The notes: a model not told the origin generated them from the letters alone. 64,000 nt of DNA from an uncultured Gammaproteobacteria bacterium (GCA_963981015.1 CAXCCG010000001.1:12560-76559); one strand, 5' to 3'; numbered from the stretch's first letter, positions 3,288 to 40,846 are shown. Numbers and translations are program-made.

Positions 3288-3372
3288 TGGTGCCGAAGGC
3301 CGGACTTGAACCGGCACGGCTTACGCCACTACCCCCTCAAGATAGCGTGTCTACCAATTCCACCACTTCGGC
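3288..3372 (-). tRNA. leuU: tRNA-Leu (anticodon GAG)
   Basis: Reverse complement is GCCGAAGTGGTGGAATTGGTAGACACGCTATCTTGAGGGGGTAGTGGCGTAAGCCGTGCCGGTTCAAGTCCGGCCTTCGGCACCA. It has a 7-bp acceptor stem, a long variable arm, anticodon loop CTTGAGG and a CCA end. It sits just downstream of secG, as with E. coli secG-leuU. Confidence 0.9.
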
Positions 3373-3413: not shown

Positions 3414-3884
3414 TTACTTCTTCTCTTCGGAGACAGAATCTACCATCTCTTTAAGTTTTTCCACTTCACCTTCTGGAACAGCCGGTAGTGCATCACCTGA
3501 TGGCATCAGTGGTGCAACCTCTTCACCGTTTTGAGGTAGAGGAATACCGCTATTCATCTGGCTCTGATCGAAGAGTTTCTCATCTACTGGTAACGGAATT
3601 TCACTCTTCTGCTCTGCTTGCACACGATCAACCACACTGGTCGAGACCTCTTCCTTATGCCCTGCGAAGTATGCCAAGGAGAGGCTGGTGATAAAGAACA
3701 CCGTTGCCAACCCCCCTGTCAGCCGACTCACGAAGGAGGTGGAACCCTGTGAACCAAATACGGTTGCTGAAGCACCACTGCCAAAGGCTGCACCAGCATC
3801 TGCGCCTTTACCGTGCTGCATTAAAATCAACCCTACCATGCCAATAGCTGCAACGACATGGACTAGTAATAAAATTGTTTGCAT
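3414..3884 (-). CDS. secG: preprotein translocase subunit SecG (with extended C-terminal tail)
   Basis: MQTILLLVHVVAAIGMVGLILMQHGKGADAGAAFGSGASATVFGSQGS is the canonical SecG N-terminus. It is followed by tRNA-Leu. Confidence 0.9.
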   Translation of the reverse strand: MQTILLLVHVVAAIGMVGLILMQHGKGADAGAAFGSGASATVFGSQGSTSFVSRLTGGLATVFFITSLSLAYFAGHKEEVSTSVVDRVQAEQKSEIPLPVDEKLFDQSQMNSGIPLPQNGEEVAPLMPSGDALPAVPEGEVEKLKEMVDSVSEEKK

Positions 3885-3896
3885 TAGATCAAGTAC

Positions 3897-4649
3897 CTAT
3901 CCAGCAGCCCGGCAGATGGTCAGAAAATCCTCAGATTTCAGTGAAGCACCACCAATCAAACCACCGTCAATATCAGGCTGCGCCAAAAGCTCAGCCGCAT
4001 TTGCAGCATTCATGCTACCACCATATTGAATTCTTACACCATCAGCAACTAACTGATCTTGCTTGGCAATATGAGAACGAACAAAGGCGTGAACCTCTTG
4101 AGCCTGTTCAGGGGAAGCTGTTTTACCCGTACCAATCGCCCATACCGGCTCATAAGCAATCACCGAGTTCTGCAGTGCTGCAACACCATAGGCGTTGATT
4201 ACCGCGTCCATCTGACGTGCACAAACCTGCTCGGTTACTCCCTCTTCACGCTCTTCCAGCAGTTCGCCGATACAGAGAATAGGCGTCAGGCCGGAATCCT
4301 GTGCTGCCTTGAACTTTTCAGCAACCAACTGATCACTCTCACCCCGACCATGACGGCGCTCAGAATGTCCTACAATGGCATACTGACAATTAAAGTCATT
4401 CAACATAGAACCTGAGATTTCGCCGGTATAGGCTCCTGAAGCTGCATTACTCAGGTCCTGACTACCCAGCGCAATTGCTGTGCCTCCGGTCAGTGCTGAG
4501 GCCTCTGCTATGTAGATCGCAGGTGCACAGACAACAACCTCGGCTACATTCACTTCACCGATCCCTGCTTTTAGCCCTGCAACCAGTTCACGGATAGACT
4601 CCAGTGTTCCATTCATCTTCCAGTTTCCGGCAACAATCGGTTTGCGCAT
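3897..4649 (-). CDS. tpiA: triosephosphate isomerase
   Basis: MRKPIVAGNWKMNG...IVGHSERR...AYEPVWAIGTG TIM signatures. Confidence 0.95.
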   Translation of the reverse strand: MRKPIVAGNWKMNGTLESIRELVAGLKAGIGEVNVAEVVVCAPAIYIAEASALTGGTAIALGSQDLSNAASGAYTGEISGSMLNDFNCQYAIVGHSERRHGRGESDQLVAEKFKAAQDSGLTPILCIGELLEEREEGVTEQVCARQMDAVINAYGVAALQNSVIAYEPVWAIGTGKTASPEQAQEVHAFVRSHIAKQDQLVADGVRIQYGGSMNAANAAELLAQPDIDGGLIGGASLKSEDFLTICRAAG

Positions 4650-6939: not shown

Positions 6940-8865
6940 TCAGTGCTGATTGGCCGGATCACCCACAGGATCTTCTGAATCGGCTTCATCACTCTCTGAA
7001 GCAACGATGAACTCAACCCCATCATCATCTTCGTCATCATCAGACTCACTCCAATCTTCTGGCGGACGCGGTGTACGCCCCTCCATAATATCCTTGATTT
7101 GAGTACCATCAATCGTTTCAAATTTGATTAATGCCTCTGCCATCAGATCCAGTATGGTTCGATTCTCTTTCAGAATGGACTCTGCACGCTCATAGTTCTG
7201 ATCGATCACAGCACGAATCTCCTCATCAATCAGATGTGATGTTTCGTCCGACACCTCTTTATGTTTGGTTACAGAACGCCCCAGAAAGACCTCTCCCTCC
7301 TCCTCTGCATAGGAGAGTGGCCCCAATTTTTCTGACAGCCCCCATTTGGTCACCATATTACGGGCTATTTCTGTAGCACGCTCAATGTCGTTAGAGGCAC
7401 CTGTTGTCACCGCATCTGCACCAAACACCAACTCTTCTGCAATACGTCCACCAAACAGACTGGATATTTGACTCTCCAGACGTTTTTTACTATGGCTATA
7501 GCGATCTTCTTCCGGAAGGAACATGGTGACGCCGAGAGCACGCCCTCGAGGAATAATGGTCACCTTATAAACCGGATCATGCTCAGGAACTGACAATCCA
7601 ACAATCGCATGACCTGCCTCATGGAAGGCTGTCAGCGACTTCTCCTCATCACTCATCACCATTGAACGGCGTTCCGCACCCATCATAATCTTGTCCTTGG
7701 CCTTCTCAAACTCAGACATATTGACCAGACGTTTGCCGGCTTTGGCAGCAAACAGGGCCGCCTCATTCACCAGGTTGGCGAGATCGGCACCAGAGAAGCC
7801 CGGAGTTCCCCGCGCCAGCAGTTTGGGCTTGACGTTCTTGGCGACCGGAACCTTATTCATATGCACTTTAAGGATATGCTCACGTCCGCGCACATCGGGT
7901 AGTGGCACCACCACCTGACGGTCAAAACGGCCAGGGCGTAGCAGTGCAGGGTCCAATACGTCTGGACGGTTGGTTGCTGCAATCACAATCACGCCATCAT
8001 TGGCCTCAAAGCCATCCATCTCTACCAGTAGCTGATTCAGTGTCTGCTCACGCTCATCGTGTCCTCCACCAAGCCCGGCACCACGATGGCGCCCCACCGC
8101 GTCGATCTCATCAATAAAGATGATACAAGGCGCACTTTTCTTGGCCTGCTCAAACATGTCACGTACACGCGAGGCACCGACACCGACAAACATCTCAACA
8201 AAATCAGAGCCAGAGATAGTAAAAAAAGGCACCTTGGCTTCACCGGCAATCGCCTTCGCCAGCAGTGTCTTACCGGTGCCTGGAGAACCTGTCAGCAATA
8301 CACCACGAGGAATTTTTCCACCCAGCTTCTGAAATTTTCCAGGATCTTGCAAAAAATCAACCAGTTCAGAGACCTCCTCTTTCGCCTCCTCAACTCCAGC
8401 CACATCCGCAAAGGTGACTTGCACTTGATCTTCATTCAAGAGACGTGCCTTGCTCTTACCGAAAGACATCGGCCCCCCTTTACCACCAACTCCACCTTGC
8501 ATCTGGCGCATAAAGAAGACCCACACCGCAATCAGCAGCAGCATAGGGAACCAGGAGATGAAAATCTGCATCAACATCCCCTGCTGCTCAGGGGGCTGTG
8601 CATCGATTGACACCCCATTTTCGATCAGATCACCGATCAGCCCACGATCACCCGGATCATAGGTGGTGAATTGCTCTCCTGTAGCGCTGACCCCACGAAC
8701 CACTCGCCCCTCAATCTCCACTCGATTCACACGACCTTGACGAACATCCGAGATAAATTGCGAGTAGTCGACACCTTTCTGGCTGCTGTTGCGGGGACCA
8801 AAACTATTAAAAACAGACATGAGCACAGTTGCAATAACGGCCCACAAGAGGATATTTTTCATCAT
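6940..8865 (-). CDS. ftsH: ATP-dependent zinc metalloprotease FtsH
   Basis: 641 aa; AAA+ Walker [12 protein letters not shown], a second region of homology, the HEAGHA zinc motif and an acidic C-terminal tail. Confidence 0.97.
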
Positions 8866-9599: not shown

Positions 9600-9639
9600 G
9601 ATAAAACCTTTATTGAAGATATGAGAGCAACCTCTACTA

Positions 9640-9799
9640 GGGAACCTCTGAATAAGTCATGTGTAAATGCCTAACGCCCATAGTGCCCAATATCTTCATT
9701 GAAAACCTTGCTAATAGCCTGCTATTGGCTGCGATCTTCGCCTTGATCTTGGACACTATGGACGTAATTCAAATTACCCAGACTTGTTCAGAGGTTCCC
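9640..9799. mobile_element. MITE copy 1 (160 bp, 19-bp TIRs GGGAACCTCTGAATAAGTC / GACTTGTTCAGAGGTTCCC, TA flanks)
   Basis: Near-identical elements at 30695-30854 and 39917-40076. A perfect/near-perfect terminal inverted repeat is flanked by a TA dinucleotide on each side (9638-9639 and 9800-9801). There are internal hairpins (cccatagtg...cactatgg; gctaatagc/gctattggc). No coding capacity. Confidence 0.85.
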
Positions 9800-10422
9800 T
9801 AGCTACCTCTGTATTTTCTAGCCAGAAGATAGACCTCTCGACTACGACCTCTTGACGCCTTGGGTTTTCGGGTCAACACCGTACTAAAATCATGACGTAA
9901 CCCCTGTAATAGCTGGTCAAAACCATCTCCCTGAAAAACCTTCATCAGCAGGTCTCCACCCGGCTTTAATGTCTGACGTGCAAAGTCGTGCGCCAATTCC
10001 ACCAAAAACATCGCCTTTGGAATATCTACCGCACTCATTCCACTCATATTGGGAGCCATATCTGAGAGAACCAGATCCAGAGGCTCCCCTCCCAGCAGTG
10101 TTAACAGTTGCTCCAGTACAGACTCTTCCCGAAAATCCCCCCGCAAAAATGTTGCACCAACAACCGGGTCCATATCCAGAATATCCATTGCAACCACCAC
10201 ACCACTCTTCCCCACCTTCTGTGCAGCAACCTGGGTCCAGCCGCCAGGAGCTGCCCCAAGATCTACAATACGCAGCCCAGGGCGCAACAGATGATCTTTC
10301 TCATTAATTTCGATCAGTTTATAGGCTGCACGGGAACGGTAACCATCCACCTGAGACCGTTTGACGTATTCATCATTGAAATGTTCCTGCAACCAGCGAC
10401 CACTGCTTTTACTTTTTGCCAC
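9799..10422 (-). CDS. rlmE: 23S rRNA (uridine2552-2'-O)-methyltransferase RlmE/FtsJ
   Basis: [24 protein letters not shown]...[18 protein letters not shown]; stop codon TAG shares its TA with the MITE flank. Confidence 0.95.
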
Positions 10423-30856: not shown

Positions 30857-32212
30857 TTAATCCAGCGTTTCCATACGGATACGCATTACCGAACCATCCA
30901 CACAATCCAGCGCCTCAATGGCCTCAATCGCCCGGTTCATATGACCCTCCAAGGTCTTGTGCGTCAGTAGCACAACCGGCACCTGGCTACTTCCATCAGT
31001 GCCCCCCCCCGGGGAGCCCTCTCTACCAACTTCGCTGTCATTCACCTTGTCTTTCTGCACAAAGGCTTCGATACTGATCTCATTTTCACCCAGGATACGG
31101 GTAATATCCGCCAACACCCCCGGCTTGTCCTCTACTGCAATACGCAGGTAGTAGGCTGTCTCGATCTGCTCAATCGGCAGTATCGGCAGATCTTGCAGTG
31201 CATCCGGTTGGAAGGCGAGATGAGGGACGCGATTCTCTGGGTCTGCGGTCATTGCACGTACCACATCAACCACATCTGCCACCACTGCAGAGGCTGTTGG
31301 CTCATCGCCCGCGCCCGCTCCGTAGTAGAGCGTTGGTCCTACAGCATCCCCCATCACCAATACCGCATTCATCACTCCATCCACATTGGCGATCAGTTGG
31401 CGCTCCGGGATCAGTGTCGGGTGAACACGCAGTTCAACACCATTTTCTGCTTTACGTGCCACACCAAGGTGCTTGATGCGATAACCAAGCTCTTCCGCAT
31501 AGGCAACATCTTCTGCAGTAATTTTAGTAATCCCTTCTGTCATTGCCTGCTCAAACTGCAACGGTATCCCAAAGGCAATCGAGGCAAGGATAGTCAATTT
31601 ATGGGCTGCATCGATCCCCTCTACATCGAAGGTGGGGTCTGCCTCGGCATAGCCCAGCTCTTGCGCCTCTTTGAGCACATCCTCAAAGGCTCGCCCTTTG
31701 TCGCGCATCTCGGTGAGGATAAAATTACCCGTTCCGTTAATAATCCCCGCGAGCCACTGAATCTGGTTGGCCGCCAGCCCTTCACGCACCGACTTGATAA
31801 TGGGGATTCCACCCGCAACCGCCGCTTCAAAAGCGACCATTACCCCCTTTTTCTGTGCCAGTTCAAACAACTCATTACCGTGAGTTGCAATCAATGCCTT
31901 GTTGGCAGTGACCACATGCTTACCTTGTTTCAGTGCAGCAACCACCACTTCACGTGCAAACTCAGTACCACCCATCAGCTCCAGCACGATCTCTACTTCG
32001 GAGTCATTGGCTACTTCAAATGGATCTGTAGTGAGACGAATACCTTCGGTACCACAGATGCGGGGGCGATCCAAATCACGTACCGCCGCCATGCTCACTT
32101 CAATTTGACGTCCGGCACGACGTGCGATCTCCGCTGCATTGCGCGTCAATACATTTACACTACCACAGCCTACCGTACCTAACCCCAGCACACCCACTTT
32201 AACCGGTTTCAT
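30857..32212 (-). CDS. hom: homoserine dehydrogenase (with C-terminal ACT domain)
   Basis: 451 aa; N-terminal NAD-binding VGVLGLGTVG, catalytic domain, ACT tail. Confidence 0.93.
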   Translation of the reverse strand: MKPVKVGVLGLGTVGCGSVNVLTRNAAEIARRAGRQIEVSMAAVRDLDRPRICGTEGIRLTTDPFEVANDSEVEIVLELMGGTEFAREVVVAALKQGKHVVTANKALIATHGNELFELAQKKGVMVAFEAAVAGGIPIIKSVREGLAANQIQWLAGIINGTGNFILTEMRDKGRAFEDVLKEAQELGYAEADPTFDVEGIDAAHKLTILASIAFGIPLQFEQAMTEGITKITAEDVAYAEELGYRIKHLGVARKAENGVELRVHPTLIPERQLIANVDGVMNAVLVMGDAVGPTLYYGAGAGDEPTASAVVADVVDVVRAMTADPENRVPHLAFQPDALQDLPILPIEQIETAYYLRIAVEDKPGVLADITRILGENEISIEAFVQKDKVNDSEVGREGSPGGGTDGSSQVPVVLLTHKTLEGHMNRAIEAIEALDCVDGSVMRIRMETLD

Positions 32213-39903: not shown

Positions 39904-39916
39904 TGCAACACTCTTA

Positions 39917-40076
39917 AGGAACCTCTGAATAAGTCATGTGTAAATGCCTAACGCCCATAGCGTCCAATATCTTCGTTGAAAACCTTGCTAATAGCCTGCT
40001 ATTGGCTGCGATCTTCGCCTTGATCTTGGACACTATGGACGTAATTCAAATTACCCAGACTTGTTCAGAGGTTCCT
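39917..40076. mobile_element. MITE copy 3 (160 bp, perfect 19-bp TIRs, TA flanks)
   Basis: TIRs AGGAACCTCTGAATAAGTC / GACTTGTTCAGAGGTTCCT; TA at 39915-39916 and 40077-40078. Confidence 0.88.
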
Positions 40077-40140
40077 TAAACTTAGAATTCTAGGCTTAAA
40101 CAGAAAAATATTATTAATTTCAGACAACGGAGAATTATCC

Positions 40141-40617
40141 ATGCTAGAAACGGGCGAAACTATTCCTCATTTTTCAAAACCTGATCAAGAGGGTAATGAG
40201 AAGGCCTTCAGTGACCTTACAGGAGAAAAAGGGCTTATCCTCTACTTCTACCCCAAAGACAACACACCCGGATGCACCAATGAGGCAAAAGATTTTCGGG
40301 ATGAGATTGAAACCTTCAGAAAAATGGGGGTTGAGGTGGTTGGTGTCTCCAAAGACACGGCACGCACCCATACCAACTTCATCACCAAGCATGAACTCCC
40401 TTTTACACTGCTCAGCGACAGTGATCCAGAGGCAGAGATGTGTCAAGCCTTTGGGGTATGGCAAGAGAAGAAAAATTACGGCAAGGTCTATATGGGGATT
40501 GTGCGAACCACATTTCTGATTGATGCAAAAGGCACGATTCTGAAAGTCTACAACAAGGTACGCGTCAAAGAGCATGTATCAGAAGTCTTCTCAGATACCC
40601 GCAATTTACTCAAATAA
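40141..40617 (+). CDS. bcp: thiol peroxidase Bcp (peroxiredoxin Q family)
   Basis: 158 aa; FYPKDNTPGCT peroxidatic-Cys motif. Confidence 0.9.
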   Translation: MLETGETIPHFSKPDQEGNEKAFSDLTGEKGLILYFYPKDNTPGCTNEAKDFRDEIETFRKMGVEVVGVSKDTARTHTNFITKHELPFTLLSDSDPEAEMCQAFGVWQEKKNYGKVYMGIVRTTFLIDAKGTILKVYNKVRVKEHVSEVFSDTRNLLK

Positions 40618-40630
40618 AACCCGAACCTGA

Positions 40631-40846
40631 GAAAACCCTGAATAAGTCATGAACGAGTGTCTTACGCCTATAGAACCCAAACTCTTCATTGAAAATCTTA
40701 TGAACAGTTCACGATTAGTTTCGATTTTTCAAAGTGAAACATATACGCCGGGCAAGACACTCTGGGGGCACCTTGATCTTGAACCCTCTTTTAAACCCTA
40801 TAGACAGACATGATTCATTTCGCACAGACTTATTCAGAGCTTCCCC
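40631..40846. mobile_element. divergent MITE-family member (copy 4, ~215 bp, degenerate TIRs)
   Basis: Shares the CCTGAATAAGTCATG...CAGACTTATTCAGAG ends and internal blocks (cgcctatagaacccaa..cttcattgaaaa..ccttgatcttg) with copies 1-3, but is ~30% diverged and longer. Confidence 0.6.

Follow-up and report, generated by a model that had tools for sequence, protein, structure and literature searches.

A 64,000-nt stretch of DNA from an uncultured Gammaproteobacteria bacterium (GCA_963981015.1, CAXCCG010000001.1:12560-76559; hereafter the window, at its full length) carries several copies of a short palindromic repeat, one of which lies at positions 9641 to 9798. We conclude that these repeats are, very probably, a non-autonomous transposable element of the miniature inverted-repeat type (MITE) derived from, and mobilised in trans by, an IS5-group (InsH-like) DDE transposase. 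The element is 158 bp long, has terminal inverted repeats and no transposase, occurs at unrelated loci with target duplications and has spread recently, which together define it as a MITE, and a 4-bp YTAR duplication combined with IS5-type ends that also bound IS5 transposase genes places it in the IS5 group. An original prediction, made from the window alone, had described a MITE of IS630/Tc1-mariner type; the first half of that description stands on the features just listed, whereas the family had to be changed because of the 4-bp YTAR duplication and the IS5-type ends. The element is 'Tourist-like', not 'Stowaway-like'. As an IS5-group MITE it adds an ordinary example to a class already described, that of MITEs whose terminal repeats are of the IS5 family (PMC4596501).

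Direct reading, alignment and a repeat finder all recovered three canonical copies and one diverged, longer relative in the window, at the places where they had first been noticed. The canonical copies differ pairwise at 2-3 of 158 positions; relative to the family consensus, copy 1 has 2 private single-nucleotide polymorphisms (SNPs), copy 2 has 1 and copy 3 has 1 private change, and the SNPs quoted in the original prediction (catagTgcc, catagCgcc and catagCgTc) proved correct. The terminal motif GGAACCTCTGAATAAGTC was matched 8 times at 3 mismatches or fewer, i.e. at both ends of four elements, when shuffled versions of the window gave a mean of 0.04 and 0 of 100 shuffles reached 8. Low-stringency BLAST found no further copies or fragments in the window. 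The boundaries first given, which took in a variable base 'x' at each tip and placed a TA just outside on each side, required revision: the element proper is 158 bp, the 'x' bases lie outside it, and 'x' together with TA forms 4-bp direct repeats (CTAG/CTAG, CTAT/CTAT and TTAA/TTAA). The copies, their terminal repeats and their target-site duplications are located as follows.

9641-9798, plus strand: MITE copy 1, 158 bp, bounded by the stop codon of rlmE/ftsJ and the start of DUF938, the two genes being on the minus strand
9637-9640: left target-site duplication of copy 1, CTAG (sequence reading, 4-bp rule)
9799-9802: right target-site duplication of copy 1, CTAG; 9799-9801 doubles as the minus-strand TAG stop of rlmE
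9641-9658, plus strand: left terminal inverted repeat, GGAACCTCTGAATAAGTC; identical at 30696-30713 and 39918-39935
9781-9798, minus strand: right terminal inverted repeat, GGAACCTCTGAACAAGTC in minus-strand reading; identical at 30836-30853 and 40058-40075
30696-30853, plus strand: MITE copy 2, 158 bp, bounded by the stop codon of homoserine dehydrogenase (hom) and the start of threonine synthase, the two genes being on the minus strand
30692-30695: left target-site duplication of copy 2, CTAT (sequence reading)
30854-30857: right target-site duplication of copy 2, CTAT; its final base lies within the TAA stop of hom (30857-30859, minus strand)
39918-40075, plus strand: MITE copy 3, 158 bp, downstream of a NIR_SIR-domain gene with its terminator and upstream of a gene of the AhpC/TSA family
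39914-39917: left target-site duplication of copy 3, TTAA (sequence reading)
40076-40079: right target-site duplication of copy 3, TTAA (sequence reading)
40631-40844, plus strand: copy 4, diverged long-form relative, 214 bp, with terminal repeats GAAAACCCTGAATAAGTC and GGAAGCTCTGAATAAGTC

Copy 4 retains 71 % identity over its first 96 nt and has two internal insertions, and its internal module of about 42 bp has a homologue, 'module C', in the variants of 242 and 263 bp described below. Its flanks, CTGA and CCGA, match at 3 of 4 bases and look like a decayed duplication.

The target site was surveyed beyond the window by scanning a metagenome collection with the first 31 nt of the element, which returned 56 stretches from which each copy was extracted with its flanks. 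The pooled census comprised 32 distinct complete insertion sites, the three window sites included. A perfect 4-bp direct repeat was present at 29 of the 32 sites, and repeats of 2, 3, 5, 6 or 7 bp at none, so that the TA target-site duplication first proposed is not borne out at any of them. The duplicated sequences were CTAA (nine sites), TTAG (eight), CTAG (four) and TTAA (four), together with ATAG, CAAG, TTAT and CTAT; 25 of the 29 perfect repeats read YTAR, the third base was A at all 32 sites, and the consensus target is YTAR. At each of the three exceptional sites the left flank came from one site and the right flank from another; these are recombinants or chimeric assemblies and not counter-examples. 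Four contigs (L157, L176, L191 and L158) combine the flanks of separate sites when compared with L166, L177, L188, L145, L190, L146 and L162, which suggests MITE-mediated recombination or assembly chimeras at the repeat. Two other contigs (L128 and L129) terminate within the MITE.

Reconstructed empty junctions of 64 sites were compared with all collected sequences, yielding one genuine pair. The filled site (L189, 6427-6584) holds the 158-bp element between two TTAG, and the matching empty site (L177, 301-332, minus strand) lacks the element and has TTAG only once, the flanks of the two being 98 % identical over 158 bp on one side and 96 % over 83 bp on the other. The original prediction had proposed an empty-site comparison as confirmation of a TA duplication; made here on another copy of the family, the comparison shows one TTAG becoming two, so the duplication is of 4 bp and not of TA.

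The 18-nt terminal repeat was scanned in one genome per species, which gave at least 119 stretches from Gammaproteobacteria, Betaproteobacteria, Dehalococcoidia, Acidobacteria and others. Among the matches listed, short terminal-repeat pairs were the majority type (66 pairs of 60-600 bp in 60 loci); a perfect 4-bp repeat flanked 32 of these 66 listed pairs, 27 times as YTAR, and repeats of 2, 5 or 6 bp fitted none. Four complete elements of 1080-1194 bp were also among those listed (L054 3094-4268, L009 4204-5397, L068 211-1290 and L043 558-1735), with identical 4-bp flanks (CTAG or CTAA) in the first three and CTAG/CTAA in L043. Each contains a single open reading frame (ORF), of 291-329 aa, that matches the NCBIfam model NF033581 'IS5 family transposase' (E = 1e-87 to 1e-103) as well as Pfam DUF772 and DDE_Tnp_1, and the four transposases share 46-60 % identity with E. 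coli InsH. The annotated IS5A ends of E. coli K-12 read GGAAGGTGCGAATAAG (left) and GGAAGGTGCGAACAAGTC (right); the terminal repeat of our element agrees with the right end at 14 of 18 bases, and an asymmetry between left T and right C is common to both. The repeat is of IS5-group type (GGAAGGTGCGAAYAAG-like), common to autonomous IS5-family elements, and the published duplication motif of IS5 is 5'-YTAR-3' (PMC5009759).

These data bear directly on two other origins of the repeats. A Stowaway-like MITE of the IS630/Tc1-mariner type would insert at TA, duplicate that dinucleotide and carry a variable base at each tip, an account that we consider extremely unlikely here. TA does adjoin every copy, being the core of YTAR, but all four flank positions are repeated in 3/3 canonical window copies as at most census sites, and the empty site has one TTAG. 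The 'x' bases of copy 2 (T...C) are non-complementary and so are not part of the inverted repeat, while the terminal repeat itself matches IS5 ends and bounds IS5-family transposase genes; no IS630-type transposase turned up beside it in the at least 119 loci, which were screened with IS5-type queries only. The element is also palindromic, intergenic and multi-copy, as would be a REP/REPIN-type repeat mobilised by an IS200/IS605-like RAYT enzyme or a regulatory RNA conserved at orthologous sites, yet either of these is hardly conceivable in view of the copies at unrelated loci. REPINs were compared on three criteria, i.e. absence of a target duplication, a hairpin with a conserved GTAG/CTAC head, and a RAYT gene, the last looked for in the ORF lists of the window only; they lack the DDE-type terminal inverted repeats and the 4-bp target duplication found here. 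As for an orthologous RNA, the element has no Rfam match, and relatives with 81-87 % identical Hom proteins have other sequences in the hom-thrC spacer.

Several points nevertheless weigh against an IS5-group MITE mobilised in trans. A tblastn search with four IS5-like transposases and InsH found no IS5-like coding sequence in the window, and contigs of the same organism or of close relatives, about 600 kb in all, contained no autonomous IS5 element with these ends. Some single-match loci among the at least 119 may be chance occurrences, since we estimate that an 18-mer would be expected about 35 times by chance in 596 Gb. Leaving the three exceptional sites aside, CTAT in the window and three census duplications depart from strict YTAR. 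The three insertions in the window yielded no empty allele: strain-level contigs with identical FtsH, Hom or AhpC proteins were all filled, and the exact empty junction of copy 3 had 0 matches in the metagenome contig collection. Lastly, the covariation between the arms of the element, described below, could reflect arm-to-arm conversion instead of selection on the fold.

Trans mobilisation would, judging from the sequence, rely on an IS5-type enzyme encoded outside the window. A 111-aa C-terminal fragment of an IS5-family transposase, without a terminal repeat, occurs in L142 (416-751, minus strand) and L143 (about 8080-8490), 3.3 kb from a 200-bp MITE copy, and probably represents what is left of an autonomous element of this lineage. 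Of the 56 stretches obtained with the first 31 nt, five are truncated copies and none runs on into a transposase gene, and a transposase was found beside the terminal repeat in 7 of the at least 119 genome loci listed (IS5-type queries). In the data examined, the carriers of the terminal repeat are for the most part non-autonomous. The element matched no plasmid or phage record.

The spread of the element was recent. Among 21 copies of 158 bp at distinct sites, 11 are equal to the consensus and the others differ from it by 1-2 nt, as private changes, with a mean pairwise difference of 1.19 nt; as the metagenome scan accepted exact 31-mers only, divergence within the first 31 nt is biased downwards. 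The star-like pattern points to a recent burst with a single source. The original prediction of a mobilisation that was 'recent but not simultaneous' is retained as to its recency, but the pattern is silent on the order of events. The window has 4 copies in 64 kb and contig Ga0233439_10000246 has 4 in 90 kb, and at least 32 distinct complete sites are documented, at least 29 of them beyond the window in metagenome contigs. The 'hundreds of copies per genome' proposed earlier are possible, as an extrapolation.

In its sequence the element forms a long imperfect palindrome, with an RNA minimum free energy of -65.7 kcal/mol (plus strand) and -73.3 kcal/mol (minus strand), against averages of about -30 to -35 kcal/mol in shuffles, and the corresponding z-scores of -9.3 and -10.5 bear out the nested internal hairpins of the original prediction. 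Related elements of about 160 bp with the same terminal repeat occur in a metagenome-assembled genome (MAG) labelled Piscirickettsiaceae (the nearest relative, 87 % identical to the window element), an Escarpia tubeworm endosymbiont, Ca. Spongiihabitans, MAGs of Sedimenticolaceae, Arenicellales and Thiotrichaceae, and other gammaproteobacterial MAGs. An alignment of 18 elements from at least 10 genomes was analysed with RNAalifold, which gave 39 pairs in five helices, 16 of these pairs keeping their pairing through double-sided changes. In this alignment 92 % of cells were paired, against 81 % in 500 shuffles and 31-41 % when partners were slid by 1-3 columns; the covariation score was 0.334, against 0.146 in shuffles (0/500 reached the observed value) and 0.03-0.09 with slid partners. 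Autonomous insertion sequences (ISs) have only 15-18 bp in common between their two ends, so the extended pairing of the arms is specific to the MITE and not inherited from symmetric transposase sites. We conclude that the fold itself is maintained. It is most likely kept because it helps a very short element to transpose. Mismatches of G-U type and A-C type are about equally frequent (29 vs 28), so that neither strand is favoured as RNA.

The original prediction held that the elements contain no ORF, which is not literally true: a frame of 47-48 codons, without a coding signature, spans each copy in the window. In copy 1 it is placed as follows, and copies 2, 3 and 4 have its equivalent.

9659-9802, plus strand: 47-codon ORF through copy 1, from an ATG just after the left terminal repeat to a TAG in the right duplication

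Two functional readings of the element were weighed against a MITE whose fold serves transposition. In one, the hairpin has been exapted as a structured RNA and is kept for a role in the transcript, such as RNase III processing or mRNA stabilisation that uncouples operon neighbours. The fold is strong, and compensatory changes conserve it in many genomes; copies 1 and 2 lie between co-directional genes of conserved strings and are almost certainly transcribed; and there is a precedent in the Correia elements, which RNase III binds and cleaves (PMC2649163). We see this as a minor possibility, because the element shows no orientation preference relative to flanking genes, no strand preference in its mismatches, no Rfam match at the gathering threshold or at E <= 1 (Rfam 15) and no promoter or terminator consensus, and because its star-like, near-identical copies resemble a recent selfish burst. 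A broader version, in which the element is a structurally constrained module spanning several orders of Gammaproteobacteria, its hairpin selected for a function such as an RNA-level site of operon processing or stability, brought close to stop codons by the YTAR target, or, less likely, a small peptide gene, to which the in-frame internal modules might point, appears improbable to us.

That the ORF is a real small gene of 47-81 codons, beginning at the ATG that follows the left terminal repeat and ending at a stop triplet in the target duplication, would account for its being open in copies 1-4, in the 158-, 185-, 200-, 212-, 221-, 242- and 263-bp variants and, in the same frame, in L083, L063, L048 and L028. 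It would also fit the internal modules of 9, 21, 42 and 42 bp, all multiples of 3, which keep the frame in every form except that of 234 bp. A coding role was nonetheless rejected on codon-position statistics and must be considered very unlikely. Substitutions in 18 members of the family lack 3-periodicity (codon position 1, 2728; position 2, 2629; position 3, 2526), those between copies 2 and 4 are distributed 13/8/19 (p = 0.10), and none of the 4 SNPs among the copies in the window is synonymous. In addition, the lineage of L030, L024, L031, L014 and L042 has 2-4 in-frame stops, several members lack the ATG, and the 234-bp variant shifts the frame. That the ORF is a real gene is thus unlikely; palindromic MITEs commonly contain ORFs, most of which are unproven (PMC10969869).

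An IS5-group MITE thus being the preferred interpretation, its mode of spread may be outlined. The transposase would recognise the 18-bp terminal inverted repeats GGAACCTCTGAAYAAGTC and insert the element at a YTAR tetranucleotide, duplicating these four bases. Surviving insertions would be intergenic, many of them exactly on or beside a stop codon that the duplication regenerates. Foldback or cruciform geometry may help the two ends of so short an element to synapse; alternatively, the fold may allow the element to be tolerated inside transcripts.

Insertion sites are consistently intergenic (33/33 examined), and at about 11 of these 33 the duplication lies on, or within 5 nt of, the stop codon of a flanking gene. 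This placement follows from the target, since every YTAR holds a stop triplet on both strands, survivors are intergenic and the duplication regenerates the stop. In copy 1 the TAG stop of rlmE/ftsJ is contained in the right CTAG, and in copy 2 the target lies within TAATAG at the end of hom. The gene whose stop codon is involved in copy 1 is the following.

9799-10422, minus strand: rlmE ORF, ending in the right duplication of copy 1

Copy 1 sits between co-directional genes of the conserved string rlmE-DUF938-ftsH-folP-glmM and copy 2 between the co-directional hom and thrC, while copy 3 follows an intrinsic terminator and precedes the AhpC/TSA-family gene, after which copy 4 is found. Orientation with respect to neighbouring genes is mixed, window copies 1 and 2 being antisense and copy 3 sense. 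The element contains no promoter-like or terminator-like consensus and no U-tract. The suggestion that it serves as a transcription terminator therefore finds no support, all the more so as copies 1 and 2 lie within operons, upstream of genes that need expression (rlmE-DUF938-ftsH and hom-thrC), where terminators would harm the downstream genes.

Eukaryotic Tourist MITEs belong to the PIF/Harbinger superfamily, whose transposases are related to those of IS5. Like the present element, they are short, palindromic and non-autonomous, derive from an IS5-like DDE transposon and have a target centred on T(N)A; they differ in having a 3-bp duplication (TWA) instead of 4 bp, and there is no sequence relationship to the element, which resides in a bacterial host. 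With IS5 of E. coli the element shares 14 of 18 bases of the right end, the T/C asymmetry and the 4-bp YTAR duplication (PMC5009759), and the autonomous elements bearing its terminal repeat are about 1.1-1.2 kb long and encode transposases 46-60 % identical to InsH. It differs from IS5 by its length of 158 bp, the lack of a transposase, positions 5, 6, 8 and 9 of the terminal repeat, and an interior that is an extended palindrome, not seen in autonomous ISs.

Among bacterial MITEs, the Porphyromonas gingivalis BrickBuilt and MITE239/293/464/700 and the Neisseria ATR (parent ISNme1) are likewise non-autonomous, with IS5-family terminal repeats and no transposase remnant, and BrickBuilt holds an internal minisatellite (PMC4596501) that parallels the variable 9-bp repeat of copy 3. 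Their terminal repeat is unrelated (GAGACCTTTGCA) and their target duplications are variable or absent, whereas the 4-bp YTAR duplication is nearly invariant here. The Correia elements (CREE/NEMIS) of Neisseria and ERIC of enterobacteria are also palindromic MITEs of about 100-160 bp, intergenic or intra-operon, that form long hairpins in transcripts, but neither has sequence similarity to the element; Correia elements, which RNase III binds or cleaves (PMC2649163), differ further by a TA duplication and other terminal repeats. Palindromy, ORFs, intra-operon location and, in Correia elements, RNase III effects are known properties of bacterial MITEs (PMC10969869, PMC2649163).

Current understanding is not overturned by these results; their value lies in the corrected class, the clean YTAR/stop-codon pattern and the compensatory conservation of the fold. 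The element and many similar short elements of uncultured Gammaproteobacteria, Betaproteobacteria, Dehalococcoidia and Acidobacteria are to be classified as IS5-type YTAR MITEs and not as TA/mariner MITEs. It inserts exactly at stop codons without destroying them, it breaks metagenome assemblies, in which contigs terminate inside it, and its flank combinations suggest element-mediated rearrangements or chimeric joins. Compensatory conservation of a fold across distant hosts is unusual for a MITE family and makes this one a case for separating selection for transposition from selection at the RNA level.

The size forms of the element (158, 200, 221, 234, 242 and 263 bp), aligned from L145, L153, L142, L190 and L177, consist of a core to which a 21-bp module and two homologous 42-bp hairpin modules are added; in the 234-bp form an extra 13 bp shifts the frame. 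The 9-bp unit CCATAGCGT of copy 3 (39956-39964) is single in the window and in L125 but is present, in related strains, 4 times (L123) or 7 times (L124), the insertion being otherwise the same; the tandem repeat inside the element thus varies by strain. In two Thiotrichaceae contigs (L021 1810-2132 and L072 942-1265), two relatives of about 160 bp lie head to tail, about 4 bp apart; these pairs are tandem or nested insertions at a TTAA.

The hom-thrC spacer that holds copy 2 was also inspected in relatives whose Hom is 81-87 % identical. They were unsuitable as empty sites, the spacer containing unrelated sequences. The host is an uncultured marine gammaproteobacterium, and the nearest named Hom homologues are those of a 'Thiotrichales bacterium' MAG (81 %) and of Thiohalophilus (72-74 %). 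In L130 (3830-3945; Hom 87 % identical) the spacer has a different palindromic element with inverted ends of about 31 bp (CAACTCTCTCCCTATTCTATTTTCAGGGC...), and in L134-L137 (about 3830-3900; Hom 81 % identical, the 'Thiotrichales bacterium' MAG) it has a (CTAAC)n microsatellite whose unit number varies by sample, from about 4 to more than 9.

Elsewhere in the window, the AhpC/TSA (Bcp-like) gene at 40141-40617 is flanked by copy 3 (left) and the diverged copy 4 (right), both in the same orientation, and a tRNA gene at 3291-3372 (minus strand) is the sole Rfam match at the gathering threshold. In one strain (L003, about 1985-2106; ENA ERZ27246222 k141_593177), an IS3-family IS with rve and HTH ORFs has inserted into MITE copy 1; towards DUF938 only 119 bp of the MITE are left, and the rlmE side is replaced.

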